A stretch of 64,000 nt of DNA, taken from assembly GCA_963518965.1 (NCBI GenBank), contig CAUQMF010000001.1, positions 1,141-65,140 on the forward strand. Reading direction: 5' to 3'. The notes beneath the pieces are model-generated. The model saw only the letters and a program-made list of their open reading frames with translations, was not told the DNA's origin and ran no database searches. Within the stretch, counting starts at the first letter, position 1. The number at the start of each line of letters is the position of its first letter. This document shows, piece by piece, positions 8,591 through 61,957 of this stretch. The stretch is from an uncultured Campylobacter sp. Its GTDB lineage: Bacteria; Campylobacterota; Campylobacteria; Campylobacterales; Campylobacteraceae. The position numbers and the translations under genes were made by a program.

Positions 8591-9289
8591 TTACTTATCC
8601 TCAAGCACCTTTTCGCGCCACTTCGAGTTTGATTTTTTATCCATCGCCATATCTTTAGACATCTCGGCCGCAGCCTCAAAGTTTTTCTGCACGCCTTCGC
8701 TATTATTTTGATATTTAACGGCATTTGAACGCTGTATGCCGATGCTCTCGGCCTCGCTAGCCGCATCGATATTCGCTCCCAAAAATATAAACTCCCAGTC
8801 GTATTTTTCCTGCTTATCGCTTATCATTTTTTTGATCTGCGCCTTTGAGTACTCCTTGCTCGAGTTTTCTTGACCGTCGGTGATGATGACGAAAAGCACG
8901 GCCCTGTTTTTAGCGTAGATATCCTCGACTTTTGAGATTTTATTTATCGTTTCGCCGACTGCGTCTAGCAGCGCGGTATTGCCGCTAGCGACATAGTCCT
9001 TGCTCGTTAGCTTCTCGACCTTTTTGATATCGGCTCTATCGTGCAGGGTCTTAAAATGCGTATCAAAAAGCACCGTAGTTACCTTTGCGTCCACGCCGGC
9101 TTCTTTTTGTTTGTCGATCATGGAGTTAAAGCCGCCGATCGTATCACTCTCAAGCCCGCTCATAGAGCCTGATTTATCTAAGATAAGCACCATCTCAAGC
9201 TGTTTTGGTTCTGATTTTTGCGGCGCTTCCTCGCTTTTAGCAAACGCAAACGCCCCGATAATCATCAACAAAAACGCGATTTTTTTCAT
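8591..9289 (-). CDS. secreted von Willebrand factor A (vWA) domain protein
   Basis: MIDAS motif DKSGSMSG. Signal peptide MKKIAFLLMIIGAFAFA begins at the internal ATG 9289, which has an AAGGAGAAAA SD, so the start is trimmed from the 9403 track start. Confidence 0.75.
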   Translation of the reverse strand: MKKIAFLLMIIGAFAFAKSEEAPQKSEPKQLEMVLILDKSGSMSGLESDTIGGFNSMIDKQKEAGVDAKVTTVLFDTHFKTLHDRADIKKVEKLTSKDYVASGNTALLDAVGETINKISKVEDIYAKNRAVLFVIITDGQENSSKEYSKAQIKKMISDKQEKYDWEFIFLGANIDAASEAESIGIQRSNAVKYQNNSEGVQKNFEAAAEMSKDMAMDKKSNSKWREKVLEDK

Positions 9290-9446
9290 ATTTTCTCCTT
9301 TGAAAAATTTGGCTTGATTATAGCAAATTTTAAAGGCGTGACGGTAAATGCGAGGGAGCTTAAATTTGAGTTTTGTATTTTTGTTTACCCAAAACCCGGT
9401 CAAATTTACTTCAAAATTTACGGCCGAATTTAAAGGCTAAATTTAG

Positions 9447-9478
9447 AAATTTAAGGCCCGAATCCGAGCCTTAAATTT
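9447..9478 (-). terminator. putative terminator hairpin downstream of leuA
   Basis: Perfect 11-bp inverted repeat AAATTTAAGGC (9447-9457) / GCCTTAAATTT (9468-9478) with a 10-nt loop, 30 nt after the leuA stop. The stem is AT-rich and there is no clean U-tail. Confidence 0.35.
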
Positions 9479-9508
9479 GCCAAGCGGCGCGGTCAAACCG
9501 CTCAAATT

Positions 9509-11026
9509 TTACTTTGTAGCGGTGATTTTTACGTAGCTGTTTAGCGCGCCTACGTACGCTTTGGCGCTCGCCGTCATCGTATCGATATCAAGGCCGTGTC
9601 CGATGACGGTTTTGCCGTCAAATTCGACCTTCACTACTACGTTTGCCAGCGCGTCCTTGCCTTGCGAAACGGCGTTTACCTTATAGTCTTTTAGTACGCC
9701 GTTTATGCCGCTTAGACGGTCGATGACTTTAAATATGGCATCCGCCGTACCGTTGCCAAGCGCCGCATCGCTCTTGATCTCGTCTGCGTGACGAAGCGTG
9801 ATAGCAGCGCTGCTTAGGCCTTTGTTGCAGCTGCTTTGCGTTAACGTCAAAAACTCGAAAACTTCGGGGATCTTGATGATCTCGCTAGTTACCAGCGCGC
9901 GCAAATCGTCGTCAAAGATCTCTTTTTTCTTATCCGCTAGCGCCTTAAATTTCTCAAACGCCTCGTTTAGCGCGCTATCTTCTAGCTCAAAGCCAAGGCT
10001 GATTAATTTATCTTTAAAGGCGTGGCGACCCGAGTGCTTGCCTAGTATCAGCGAGTTTTTATCCAGCCCGATGCTCTCGGCGCTGATGATTTCGTAGGTT
10101 TCTTTGTGTTTTAGCACGCCGTCTTGGTGGATGCCGCTTTCATGAGCGAAGGCGTTTTTACCGACGATGGCTTTGTTTGGCTGCGGCTCGATGCCGATGA
10201 TACCAGCTAGCAGGCGCGAACTAGGATAAATTTCTTTATAAACTATGTCCGTGTAAAGCGGCGCAAATACGTCGCTACGCGTCTTTATCGCCATCACGAT
10301 CTCTTCAAGCGCGGCATTTCCGGCACGCTCGCCGATACCGTTTAGCGTACACTCGACCTGCCTGGCGCCCGCTTTTATCGCGGCTAGCGAGTTTGCCGTA
10401 GCTAGGCCTAAGTCGTTGTGATTATGCACGGAGACGACTGCGCGACCATTTATAAATTTAACCATTTCTCCTATGCGAGCGGTAATCTCCTCGGGATATA
10501 GATACCCCACGGTGTCTGGGATGTTGATCGTTTTTGCTCCGGCGTTTATAGCGGCGTCGCAAATTTCTTTTAAAAAGCTCATCTCGCTCCTGCATGCGTC
10601 CTCGCAGCTAAACTCGACGTCCTCGCAGAATGTCTTAGCGTATTCCACGGCTCGCACGGCACGCCTAATCACTTCATCTGGAGACATTTTTAGCTTAAAC
10701 TCCATATGGATCGGGCTTGTGGCGATAAAGGTGTGGATGCGCCTATTTTTTGCCGGAGCGATAGCCTCTCCCGCAGCCTTTATATCGCCGTCTACGGCGC
10801 GGGCGAGCGAACAGATAGAGGCGTTTGAGGCTTGCTTAGCGATCTGATGTATCGCGTCGAAATCGCCCCTGCTAGCCGCGGCAAAACCGACCTCCATGAC
10901 GTCTACGTTTAGGCGCTCTAGCTGGCGCGCGATACGGATTTTCTCCTCGGTATTCATTGATGCGCCGGGGCTTTGCTCGCCGTCGCGAAGCGTAGTGTCA
11001 AATATTATAATTTTATTTTCGTTCAT
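9509..11026 (-). CDS. leuA: 2-isopropylmalate synthase
   Basis: 505 aa. N-terminal TIM-barrel motif [14 protein letters not shown], HxH site ([10 protein letters not shown]), C-terminal LeuA dimerisation/regulatory domain. Confidence 0.95.
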
Positions 11027-11096
11027 TTCTTATCCTTTTTTATAGTTTTAGTTTGTGCGGTTAAATTTGATTATTAGGGTGTGAAAGAGTCGCTGC

Positions 11097-11153
11097 CTAA
11101 CGCAGCAGCAGAAGTAGGGAGAAAAATGCGTTAAATTTGACGTTGCCGTTCAT
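11097..11153 (-). CDS. candidate leucine leader peptide MNGNVKFNAFFSLLLLLR
   Basis: Hand translation of the reverse strand gives ATG..CTA CTT CTG CTG CTG CGT TAG. SD is AAGGAGAGCGA-ATG. The ATG overlaps the pssA TGA (ATGA) and the stop lies 70 nt upstream of the leuA ATG. Too short for the ORF track. Confidence 0.5.
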   Translation of the reverse strand: MNGNVKFNAFFSLLLLLR

Positions 11154-11941
11154 TCGCTCTCCTTTTGAATTTTTTTGTTTTTAAATCTCATAAAAACGTA
11201 TCTGATTATACCGTAAGAAACATAAACGCTCATTAAAGTCGTAACAGCTTCTATAGGGCAAACGTAAATAGCCGAAAACGCAACCGTAAGTCCGACCAAG
11301 ATGCGCAAAAAATCGGCCCTTTTAAGATCTACTTTTTTAAAGCTCGGGTAGCGGATATTGCTCACCATCAAGACCGAAAGCAAAATTTGCAAAAACATCA
11401 AAAACCACTCGGCGCTTCTTGTAAAGTCGTATTCTAAGCTTAGCCCGACCCAAAATGCCGAAACGATCGCAGCCGTAGGTATCGGAAGGCCGATAAAAAC
11501 GGACGGCTCGTAAGTGCCCGTCATTACGTTAAACCGTGCAAGTCTAATAGCGCCAAAAACCACGAACAGCGCGGCTACTAGCGAACCCAAACGCCCAAAA
11601 CTATGTCCGACCGTAAAATAAAAAAGCATCGCCGGCGCAACGCCAAAGGCTATGACGTCTGCAAGACTGTCGAATTCTACGCCAAATTTTGACGTAGTTT
11701 TAGTTAGTCTCGCTACGCGTCCGTCAAGTCCGTCCAAAAATAGCGATAAAACTATGTAAATAATAGCCTTAAAAAAATAGCCGTTAGCTTCATCGTCTAG
11801 CCCTGCGCTAGCCGCGATATAGCCGCGCACGGAAGCGATAATGCTGATAATACCCAAAAAAGCCGAAGCAGCCGTGAATAAATTTGGCAAAATGTACATT
11901 AACTGAAGTTTATGCTGATTGTCTTGCATCTTTTTCCTCAT
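11150..11941 (-). CDS. pssA: CDP-diacylglycerol--serine O-phosphatidyltransferase
   Basis: CDP-alcohol phosphotransferase motif DGLDGRVAR...FDSLADV. The alternative ATG at 11929 has a better SD (GAGGAAAAAG). Confidence 0.9.
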   Translation of the reverse strand: MRKKMQDNQHKLQLMYILPNLFTAASAFLGIISIIASVRGYIAASAGLDDEANGYFFKAIIYIVLSLFLDGLDGRVARLTKTTSKFGVEFDSLADVIAFGVAPAMLFYFTVGHSFGRLGSLVAALFVVFGAIRLARFNVMTGTYEPSVFIGLPIPTAAIVSAFWVGLSLEYDFTRSAEWFLMFLQILLSVLMVSNIRYPSFKKVDLKRADFLRILVGLTVAFSAIYVCPIEAVTTLMSVYVSYGIIRYVFMRFKNKKIQKESE

Positions 11942-12554
11942 AGCTAAAAAACCCTAAAATGCCCGCACTCGCGACATTTTCGCCTACGCTGACGCTTATT
12001 CGAGTATTTGCGGGTAGTATCAAAATCACCTCGCCGCTACTTAAAAAGCCAAATCTCCTGCCCGCTTTTAGTCGGCTAAAATTTTCAAAAGAAATGCCTT
12101 TGCTAAGAGGCCCTGCGATGACGCGGATCGCAAATTTATTATTTGAGTTTTTACAGACAAACAAGGCTCGCTCGTTTAAATTTTTAGAAGCTTCCACAGC
12201 ATTACACAAAAACAGACCATGCCTTTGTTTGGCCTCTAAAAGCTCCATATCGCAAGGAGCTCTGAGTGCACCCGGGTCAAACACGCCCTTACGGATAGTT
12301 ATGGCTACGCACTGCGTGTCAAAATAGTAAATTTTATCTATACTTTTTATCTTACCGTCGATCGGACTAAGTACGGCGTATGCATCGTCGCTGCCTAGCG
12401 CTCTCTCGGGATTTCTGAACCAAAATACGCAAAGCGCAAAAAGCGCGAAAAATAAAATTTGACATACACCCAAAACCAGCGCAAGTAAAAGCAAAAGCCC
12501 TAAAACGAAAACGTATTTGTAGCCCTGTTTTGCGATTAGCCCGACGTTCTGCAT
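11910..12554 (-). CDS. psd: phosphatidylserine decarboxylase family protein (short form)
   Basis: 214 aa with N-terminal TM segments. Adjacent to pssA as Cj1115c/Cj1114c. C-terminal region FGFLSSGEV is compatible with the self-cleavage region. Confidence 0.75.
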   Translation of the reverse strand: MQNVGLIAKQGYKYVFVLGLLLLLALVLGVCQILFFALFALCVFWFRNPERALGSDDAYAVLSPIDGKIKSIDKIYYFDTQCVAITIRKGVFDPGALRAPCDMELLEAKQRHGLFLCNAVEASKNLNERALFVCKNSNNKFAIRVIAGPLSKGISFENFSRLKAGRRFGFLSSGEVILILPANTRISVSVGENVASAGILGFFSYEEKDARQSA

Positions 12555-54751: not shown

Positions 54752-55470
54752 AAATAGAAAATTGCGTTTTAACTCTACTTTTAATCGGCGCTTCGTTATT
54801 TTAGCGCTAAAGCATAGCGATATTTATATGAGAACGGTTCTGCGTAGCTAAAACGTCAAAAGCAAGCACCCAAATTAATAAAATTCTCAAGAACATGCAT
54901 TAATTTATAAACAACAAAAAATAAAGCTATCGCTAACGGACTCGGTTGTTTTCTTTGATATTTAAACAGTAGATACTTGAATATTTTTAAAACGACCGCG
55001 TAAATTCGAGTTTTAAAATGAAAAATTCGTATCGGTATATTCATGGATTTAATTAATTACTTTTAAATGCGTATAGAGTAACCTTAGCAAAAGCGGAATG
55101 CCCACACACGGTTTTATGGCGCAATTAAGCGCCTCGCGCATGCCGTTTGTCGTCTCTGGCCCGTCGTGACGCGCTTTACGCAAATCTTAATTTTACTCAA
55201 AATTTATCGGTTTATGGGCCGATTTCGCATCCGTAGCTAGCCTATCGCTTATTTTTTTAGACCATTTTGAAGCTAACCCCAGATCATAACCGACTAGTTT
55301 GATTTACGTCCATTTTTGCCGCATTCGCAAGGTCGGCTTATCGTAAACGCTGCGGCGGATTTTGCGATTTTTCTAAAATTAGCCGAAAAAAGCTGACTTA
55401 GAGCCGCAATTTAATTAATCGCCGTAAAAATTACGAAGTTTATTAAGATTACGCTAAGCTATAGTTAATC

Positions 55471-61403: not shown

Positions 61404-61567
61404 CTGTTGCGGATTAAATTTTATGGATAAATTCGGAGTTAAATTTATAAAATTTGACGCACTGAGACCAGCATCTTTAAGGTGCTAAATTTGGTTTTGT
61501 CAAATTTGGCGTCGCACTCTTAAATTTTTTAAACAAACATGATTGCTTGAAGTCGTCTTGCTTCTTT

Positions 61568-61617
61568 GTTAAGGGGGAAGGGGCTTGAATTACGAAGTCG
61601 CTCCCTTCCCCCTTAAC
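61568..61617. repeat. perfect 15-bp G/C-rich inverted repeat (hairpin)
   Basis: GTTAAGGGGGAAGGG (61568-61582) pairs with CCCTTCCCCCTTAAC (61603-61617), with a 20-nt loop. Lies in a 554-nt ORF-free region. Confidence 0.75.
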
Positions 61618-61957
61618 GATCCCCTATCCCCTACGACGTGAGAAGTTGCTGCGCTATGCGCAGATTTATATTTGACGCTATCGCGTCGCAGGTTTAAATT
61701 CACATTTTCAGGGTGCGGGTCTCGGCGGCTCAAATTTACAAATTTAACCAAATTTGAGCGTAAAGCGATAAGGCGAAGTATCTTGCGATGAATTTAAATG
61801 TTTTGCTTCCCTTGCGGTCGCAACTGCAAGCAGAAGCGACGAAATTTCCAACCGAAGATAGAACATGTAGTTCATCGAGGGAGGAAATTTTTAGCTCATT
61901 TAAAGGCGCGCAAGAGACGAGCCCTTACAAAGCAAATTTAAGCTAGACTTTGTGCCA

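Follow-up and report, generated by a model that had tools for sequence, protein, structure and literature searches.

Directly upstream of leuA, in a 64,000-nt stretch of DNA from an uncultured Campylobacter sp. (contig CAUQMF010000001.1; hereafter the window, meaning the whole 64-kb stretch), a very short reading frame ends in a run of Leu codons, and the question that this locus raises is whether that reading frame controls leuA and, if so, by what means. As for its identity, the reading frame is leuL, a member of the epsilonproteobacterial LeuL family that is already known from the work of Porcelli et al., published in 2013 (BMC Genomics 14:616, PMC3847290). The peptide itself is therefore no new discovery, because it already appears in a supplementary table of that paper. 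What is added here is a map of sequence constraint over the locus, the observation that the pairing of a hairpin at the leuL stop codon is kept across lineages, the lack of a U-tract and of an antiterminator, the lack of support for occlusion of the leuA ribosome-binding site (RBS), the composition of the spacer ahead of leuA and a candidate promoter. Concerning the mechanism, we lean towards a model in which a ribosome stalled on the Leu codons would block hairpin-dependent premature termination upstream of leuA, a reading that we consider rather probable, with considerable room left for doubt.

The leuL reading frame and the LeuL family

The elements on which the argument rests are the following (all coordinates are those of the window).

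11097..11153, minus strand: leuL leader open reading frame (ORF), 18 codons encoding MNGNVKFNAFFSLLLLLR, plus a TAG stop; read from the sequence
11103..11117, minus strand: five consecutive Leu codons, CUA CUU CUG CUG CUG, taken as the regulatory codons; read from the sequence
11159..11164, minus strand: Shine-Dalgarno (SD) sequence of leuL, AAGGAG, separated from the ATG by 5 nt; the final codons of pssA (K-E of ...KESE*) supply it
11091..11110, minus strand: stop-codon hairpin, with 5' arm UGCUGCU, loop GCGUUA and 3' arm GGCAGCG; minimum free energy (MFE) of -10.5 kcal/mol
11038..11090, minus strand: unstructured C-rich, G-poor spacer from the hairpin to the leuA SD, a candidate Rho loading region by composition and predicted fold

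An earlier note on this DNA, made from its letters alone, had described the mini-ORF, and every one of its statements on the sequence was verified by reading the minus strand. The frame from 11153 to 11097 does encode MNGNVKFNAFFSLLLLLR* (ATG AAC GGC AAC GTC AAA TTT AAC GCA TTT TTC TCC CTA CTT CTG CTG CTG CGT TAG), with its start codon at 11153..11151 and its stop codon at 11099..11097; a strong SD, AAGGAG, precedes it at 11164..11159; its ATG and the TGA of pssA (11152..11150) overlap as ATGA; 70 nt separate its stop codon from the leuA ATG (11026); and a small hairpin, GCUGC-GUUAG-GCAGC, spans the stop codon at 11106..11092. The Leu run is followed by one Arg codon and then by the stop codon, so that the peptide has the C-terminal Leu run by which the family is recognised. 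Such a placement is very unlikely to have arisen by chance, since only three runs of at least five Leu occur in all six frames of the window: one in the N-terminal hydrophobic part of a psd-like protein, another in a frame that does not code and runs antisense to ftsH, and that of leuL, in the 123-nt gap directly upstream of leuA and on the leuA strand.

Previous work has described other members of the family in some detail. Using differential RNA sequencing (dRNA-seq), Porcelli et al. found a 28-aa LeuL upstream of leuABCD in C. jejuni. Five rare Leu codons encode the C-terminal run of this peptide, its transcription start site has been mapped, and a short RNA terminates shortly past the LeuL stop codon. 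They proposed that termination takes place without ribosome stalling and antitermination with it, and they reported LeuL orthologues in most of the Epsilonproteobacteria having leu genes (PMC3847290). In their Table S12, the exact peptide of the window, MNGNVKFNAFFSLLLLLR, is the putative LeuL of both C. showae (upstream of CAMSH0001_1342) and C. rectus (upstream of CAMRE0001_2267); the table also includes the C. concisus peptide recovered here and gives "none" for C. gracilis. The element of the window is thus the same as theirs, with an identical 18-aa peptide, an RBS, the same position upstream of leuA and a C-terminal Leu run, although the text of that paper states a length of 20-35 aa while its table nonetheless lists the 18-aa peptide. 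More recently, C. jejuni LeuL (CJsORF41) was shown to be translated, with strong translation-initiation peaks in ribosome profiling (Ribo-seq) and translation-initiation-site (TIS) data (Froschauer et al. 2025, PMC11955535). The earlier note was not aware of a leu attenuator described in Epsilonproteobacteria, and on this point it needs correction, as LeuL was described in 2013 and its C. jejuni member was found to be translated in 2025; the core reading of the note, that of a leucine leader peptide controlling leuA, is supported by the Leu-run mini-ORFs that recur across Campylobacterales and by the listing in PMC3847290.

The mini-ORF had also been called unannotated, and this is true of the databases, as no Pfam, NCBIfam or Rfam model matches it. 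Scanning 10500-11700 against Rfam, with E-values up to 10, gave no match, and neither did Pfam and NCBIfam searches (E up to 10) with the LeuL peptides of C. concisus, C. jejuni, Sulfurospirillum or the window, the last of them padded with four upstream in-frame residues to the 20-aa minimum. In the protein collection, C. jejuni LeuL goes by no other name than "hypothetical protein", and neither the LeuL peptide of C. concisus nor that of Sulfurospirillum was found there. leuL goes unannotated in genomes because no curated protein or RNA family model recognises LeuL; a family model made from the collected LeuL peptides and leaders would let annotation pipelines label it.

The enterobacterial leu leader (RF00512 Leu_leader, PF08054) is, like leuL of the window, a short SD-preceded ORF with a Leu run upstream of leuA, and both share the presumed logic that ribosome stalling relieves premature termination. 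However, LeuL of the window is not a member of that family, whose RNA model finds no match in 10500-11700 and whose peptide models match none of the LeuL peptides searched. In addition, the Leu run of the enterobacterial peptide lies in its middle, whereas that of LeuL is at the very C-terminus, and the enterobacterial leader has 1:2/2:3/3:4 alternative stems and a U-tract, whereas that of the window has a single hairpin made of Leu codons and neither of those features.

Conservation of leuL and of the stop-codon hairpin

Relatives were obtained by scanning species-representative genomes with LeuA, and the best 80 of 552 confirmed genome matches were analysed (loci are designated by L numbers; the leuA start is at position 3001 in L021, L078, L072 and L068). 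LeuA identity over these 80 loci was 96-100% for uncultured Campylobacter and C. showae, ~83% for C. concisus, ~76% for one clade and ~69% for Sulfurovum/Wolinella. When the regions upstream of leuA were aligned, which the earlier note had put forward as a check, the Leu-run mini-ORF proved to be retained in most of the 80 loci, preceded by an SD and ending in the Leu run; ORFs of this kind were found in the showae group, L019, L020, L026, C. concisus, L068, L070-L072, L078, Sulfurovum and Wolinella. The peptides include the following, and further variants occur in other lineages.

showae/rectus group (20 loci): MNGNVKFNAFFSLLLLLR and a few variants of its N-terminus
L019: MNADILKFAPRYVKSLLLLR
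L020: MSKIEIVKSIIVLLSTHSKSSLLLR
C. concisus: MSENGIIKSRKFLPKIEIKNSLLLLLR
L078: MSKDGVVKSIKFLPKIEIKNLLLTR
L072: MQGTITGTVKAIKYLPKIETKNSLLLLQF
L068: MNGVTVGIAKYIKILPKIEIKNALLLRLPLL
Sulfurovum L077: MKHFMQTHTIFTPKTTLLLLSL
Sulfurovum L079: MKHVMQQHTIFAQETTLLLLSL

Of the 20 showae/rectus-group loci, 12 encode exactly the peptide of the window, whereas eight depart from it in one or two residues near the N-terminus. A common pssA C-terminus, ...KESE* (AAG GAG AGC GAA TGA), encodes both the leuL SD and the ATGA overlap, and these are kept in the showae, L019, L020, L026 and C. concisus lineages; given the conservation of this ending (L001-L040), the C-terminus of the pssA protein appears to be constrained by the downstream regulatory ORF. 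The pssA-leuL-leuA synteny is old, and in L068, L071 and L072 leuL begins 20-30 nt past pssA. In Sulfurovum (L077 and L079), leuL comes after ftsH, not pssA, and lies 120-200 nt upstream of leuA.

No leuL was found upstream of leuA in the clade L043-L067, which is C. gracilis-like and is the one with ~76% LeuA identity, in agreement with the "none" given for C. gracilis in Table S12 (PMC3847290). In this clade, pssA is followed by a U-run hairpin (GGCGAAAUAAUCUC...UAUCGCC GCGAUUGUUUU) ~85 nt upstream of leuA, and a TATAAT lies ~30 nt before leuA. Such a layout is compatible with leuL and its hairpin being a conditional terminator between pssA and leuA in the other lineages, and the clade provides a natural loss-of-attenuator comparison.

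A motif directly before the Leu run, K..K.LPKIE.KN, is common to the LeuL peptides of L021 (C. concisus), L078, L072 and L068, and it is also present in Sulfurospirillum LeuL according to Table S12 (PMC3847290). Codon differences in the motif are frequently synonymous (five, against one nonsynonymous, between L021 and L078), while the spacers of these distant lineages are only 41-62% alignable. This pattern suggests that the motif of the ancestral LeuL peptides is under selection at the peptide level, and the nascent chain may help to stall the ribosome. The showae-type LeuL of the window has lost the motif.

A constraint map was drawn from an alignment of 20 distinct showae-group sequences. 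Over leuL codons 9-18 and the stop codon, only 4 of 33 columns are variable (12%), all of them synonymous or stop-codon positions, and the GCAGCG that follows the stop codon and belongs to the 3' arm of the hairpin has no variable column among its six. By comparison, 21-23% of the columns vary in the flanking coding sequence of pssA and leuA (mainly at third positions), 38% in leuL codons 1-8 and 52% in the rest of the spacer, the most variable part of the locus. We conclude from this map that selection acts on the Leu-run half of leuL and on the hairpin. Additionally, the variable sites of leuL are mostly third codon positions and its ten C-terminal residues are invariant, which is indirect evidence that leuL of the window is translated.

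The MFE form of the hairpin is the 7-bp register UGCUGCU/GGCAGCG (11110..11104 with 11097..11091), in which Leu codons 3-5 make up the 5' arm, the Arg codon and the UA of the stop codon form the loop, and the G of the stop codon opens the 3' arm. In 10 distinct sequences (showae, L019, L020, L026 and C. concisus), pairing holds for 95.7% of cells, against 13-61% in slid controls, and one pair is compensatory, a G-C having become A-U in C. concisus. No variation is seen in the three CUG codons, in spite of a usage of 14% for CUG among the Leu codons here (CUA 25%, CUU 21.5%), which suggests that these codons were chosen for pairing and not for rarity. The rare-codon explanation, stressed for C. 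jejuni, was rejected for the window, as CUA, CUU and CUG are not rare in its genome.

Possible modes of leuA control

From the ORF, its SD, the conservation of ORF and hairpin and the composition of the spacer, all of which can be read directly, we infer a sequence of events that involves ribosome stalling, a termination step, a promoter and Rho. Transcripts would enter leuL from a promoter in the 3' end of pssA, from pssA read-through or from both, and a ribosome would translate the 18 leuL codons. With charged tRNA-Leu in plentiful supply, the ribosome would pass the five Leu codons, terminate and leave, after which the last three Leu codons (UGCUGCU) would pair with the GGCAGCG just past the stop codon; the hairpin would then make polymerases terminate early or pause within the C-rich, G-poor spacer, with Rho as a probable helper, and few of them would reach leuA. 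When tRNA-Leu charging is low, the stalled ribosome would cover the 5' arm of the hairpin together with the pyrimidine-rich RNA around the stop codon, termination would be blocked and leuA would be transcribed. A separate antiterminator would be unnecessary in such a model, because the regulatory codons themselves form one arm of the hairpin. As for the hairpin, it may be a self-sufficient terminator, a partner of Rho or a mere stabiliser of the 3' end of an RNA terminated by Rho.

The part given to Rho derives from the spacer. The 70-nt segment upstream of leuA has a C content of 0.29 and a G content of 0.07; of the 23 upstream regions compared in the window, it ranks first in C and in C:G and close to last in G. 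The 49 nt past the hairpin contain 15 C and a single G. This composition resembles that of a Rho loading site, and the Rho-dependent mechanism that the earlier note had mentioned as one option would fit it. Moreover, all LeuL leaders share a Leu run that lies a few codons from the stop, followed by a G-poor unstructured spacer. A more specific version of the model can be offered, tentatively and as something that could well turn out otherwise: LeuL of this clade would be a minimal attenuator that lacks an antiterminator, with the Leu codons as the 5' arm of the sole hairpin and Rho terminating on the spacer in place of a U-tract terminator, so that the whole would work as a ribosome-occlusion switch in a phylum for which runaway transcription is predicted.

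Rho-dependent leader-peptide switches include E. coli tnaC-tnaA and speFL-speF and Salmonella mgtL-mgtA. In common with them, leuL of the window has a putative stall site at or next to its stop codon and, directly downstream, RNA that is predicted to be unstructured and has more C than G, and by analogy a parked ribosome could likewise deny Rho access to the RNA. Unlike those switches, which depend on ligand-dependent arrest by the nascent peptide, leuL would respond to tRNA-Leu charging at hungry codons. By its anatomy, LeuL of the window is closest to Rho-dependent leader-peptide switches such as tnaC and speFL, the role of Rho being putative.

Several observations weigh against the stalling model, and they are best considered together. 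Firstly, the hairpin precedes ACUCUUUCAC, which is no U-tract, and the whole leader is predicted to fold no more stably than shuffled sequences (z = -0.27). The earlier note had seen no canonical terminator before leuA, and a consensus terminator scan bears this out, as no hairpin-plus-U-tract terminator was found in 11027-11153. The missing U-tract is not decisive, because matches to the terminator consensus are at chance level window-wide. A single stable hairpin is predicted in the leader; no alternative antiterminator stem was found in it, and no pause hairpin that would synchronise ribosome and polymerase is apparent. Secondly, a ribosome at the stop codon covers the hairpin as well, and termination must therefore await its release; the timing of the mechanism depends on ribosome release and on polymerase pausing. 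Thirdly, covariation in the hairpin is modest evidence, because it reflects a single evolutionary event. Fourthly, a weak -10-like AATAAT in the spacer (11075..11070, minus strand), with an upstream TAGGCA, could yield leuA transcripts that are independent of leuL. Finally, our literature search found no paper testing the mechanism of any LeuL.

The hairpin is also restricted in its distribution, as it was not found in C. jejuni, L071, L072, L078 or L080, and it is therefore not the mechanism of the family as a whole. The C. jejuni leader, which was taken from two metagenome contigs and located by a degenerate DNA pattern, has no hairpin; its spacer is U-rich (109 nt, 56% U), the first 50 nt of it lacking G, and its upstream context is another one, whereas the window has a GC hairpin across the stop codon and the pssA overlap. 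No stable structure was seen in L071, L072, L078 and L080, and L068 and Sulfurovum have a U-run hairpin further downstream. In Sulfurovum L077 and L079, the spacer downstream of leuL measures 122-124 nt and holds a long hairpin with a UUUUU run, a layout nearer to that of a classical attenuator than the Campylobacter one.

A last point against the model concerns the coupling of transcription and translation. As far as the phylum-level classification in PMC13323073 goes, Campylobacterota are counted among the bacteria with runaway transcription, which would let the hairpin form before the ribosome arrives unless the polymerase pauses, and which fits poorly with classical co-transcriptional attenuation. 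Ribosome-mediated attenuation is nevertheless possible under runaway transcription, since Listeria monocytogenes Rli60, from another phylum on the runaway list, is a ribosome-mediated attenuator responding to branched-chain amino acids, with a classical overlapping antiterminator/terminator pair (PMC5864092); no such pair is seen in the leader of the window. The lineage of the window offers the simplest test case for LeuL, since its leader has one hairpin made of Leu codons and a Rho-like spacer but neither a U-tract nor an antiterminator; this makes it a tractable system in which to study ribosome-sensed amino-acid control where transcription and translation are thought to be uncoupled.

Among the alternatives, the one that survives best is purely Rho-dependent attenuation, which we regard as somewhat unlikely. 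Rho would load on the 3' half of leuL and on the spacer; by stalling on the C-terminal Leu codons, a ribosome would mask this RNA or keep Rho from translocating, as in tnaC and speFL, and the hairpin would only protect the 3' end of the short RNA. The extreme composition of the spacer argues for it, as does the fact that all LeuL leaders are G-poor past the stop codon, including that of C. jejuni, which has no hairpin and yet gives rise to short RNAs ending just after the stop. The Leu run always lies a few codons from the stop codon, so that a stalled ribosome covers the RNA around it; canonical terminators are at chance level in the genome of the window; and in a species with runaway transcription, pyrimidine-rich RNA is the target that Rho prefers. 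However, the argument is one of composition throughout, and AT-rich lineages have few C in their spacers (3 in 49 nt in L078, 4 in 45 nt in L071). In addition, it leaves unexplained why the 3' arm of the hairpin is the most conserved non-coding element and why the CUG codons are fixed.

It is a good deal less probable that leucine is not sensed at all. On this account, the ftsH-psd-pssA operon would simply have its 3' end or terminator in the hairpin, a spacer promoter would drive leuA, and the ORF would be a by-product or would encode a small hydrophobic peptide with a function of its own. The AATAAT with its upstream TAGGCA could supply the promoter, and some signal must mark the 3' end of pssA; in the C. 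gracilis-like clade, which lacks leuL, a terminator occupies the corresponding position. Nevertheless, the Leu run recurs upstream of leuA in leaders that are otherwise unalignable and stand in differing contexts (after ftsH in Sulfurovum), the variation of leuL is concentrated at third positions and spares the last 10 residues, C. jejuni LeuL is translated (PMC11955535), and the AATAAT is not conserved as a proper -10 box, its variants being CAATAAT and ACTAAT.

The least probable alternative, and a very improbable one, is translational attenuation of the ermC kind, which the earlier note had raised as occlusion of the leuA SD and in which leuL RNA would hide the leuA RBS until a stalled ribosome freed it: although the MFE fold of the window pairs CAUUUUU..CCU of leuL with AGG..AGAAAUG of the leuA RBS, and, in the window sequence, simulating a stall makes the RBS more accessible (mean unpaired probability of 0.82 instead of 0.62), the leuL/RBS duplex is no better than in shuffles (z = 0.08 in the window, and from -2.07 to +1.53, mostly positive, across 17 lineages), the RBS is predicted to be largely free of pairing from the outset, its accessibility changes little in most lineages when a stall is simulated, including the close relatives L001 and L018, and the whole-leader fold is itself unremarkable. 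Occlusion was consequently rejected, on the basis of duplex energies and of accessibility with and without a simulated stalled ribosome in those 17 lineages.

Candidate promoters and neighbouring genes

The remaining features of the locus are as follows.

9509..11026, minus strand: leuA, coding for 2-isopropylmalate synthase and taken as the gene under control (752.9 bits with NCBIfam NF002086, whose cutoff is 532)
11033..11037, minus strand: SD of leuA, AAGGA; read from the sequence and predicted to be mostly unpaired in the free leader
11150..11941, minus strand: pssA, CDP-diacylglycerol-serine O-phosphatidyltransferase (TIGR00473, 151.7 bits against a cutoff of 107)
11205..11210, minus strand: candidate -10 box, TATAAT, of a leuL-leuA promoter, within the pssA codons GGT ATA ATC, 57 nt upstream of the leuL ATG and invariant in the 20 showae-group sequences

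A -10-like box or a full promoter is found 30-57 nt upstream of the leuL ATG in every lineage. For instance, C. concisus has TATAAT, GATAAT or CATAAT at -39 of leuL, L068, L071 and L072 have an intergenic AAGTATAAT upstream of it, and Sulfurovum has a full TTGACA-17-TATACT promoter. As such boxes are present in every lineage, a dedicated promoter is plausible and coupling to pssA is not required; judging from these motifs, leuL probably has its own promoter inside pssA, and the translational coupling that the earlier note had deduced from the overlap is not forced by it. Read-through from pssA possibly feeds leuL as well, since the read-through of ftsH-psd-pssA is not terminable before leuL because the genes overlap. 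Invariance within the showae group was discarded as statistical support for the TATAAT in pssA, being too weak (~44% of third positions vary, and only two are involved), and the first base of the C. concisus box at -39 varies (T, G or C); the pssA TATAAT is accordingly kept as a candidate only.

The gene order is ftsH, a psd-like gene and pssA, followed by leuL and leuA, and the 3' end of pssA holds the leuL SD, the overlap with the leuL start and the candidate promoter. The psd-like ORF (11910-12554, minus strand) lies between ftsH and pssA and overlaps the latter by 32 nt; it reaches 89.5 bits against the cutoff of 225 of the NCBIfam phosphatidylserine decarboxylase model, passes Pfam PS_Dcarbxylase with 64.8 bits and has, near its N-terminus, one of the three LLLLL runs of the window. 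Elsewhere in the window, two gaps between convergent genes, of 719 nt (54752-55470) and 554 nt (61404-61957), hold no ORF of at least 110 aa.

On the other side of leuA, the next ORF begins 105 nt downstream and encodes 270 aa (8591-9403, minus strand), with no more than a vWA-TerF-like Pfam match that stays below threshold (27.2 bits, cutoff 29.4) and no NCBIfam match. As leuBCD do not come next after leuA, LeuL would control a solitary leuA in the lineage of the window. Directly after the leuA stop codon (9404-9508, minus strand), a 6-bp GC-rich hairpin, GGCUCG-GAUU-CGGGCC, is followed by UUAAAUUUCUAAAUUU; it is likely the leuA terminator, with an interrupted U-tract, and as such an example of the terminators of this genome.

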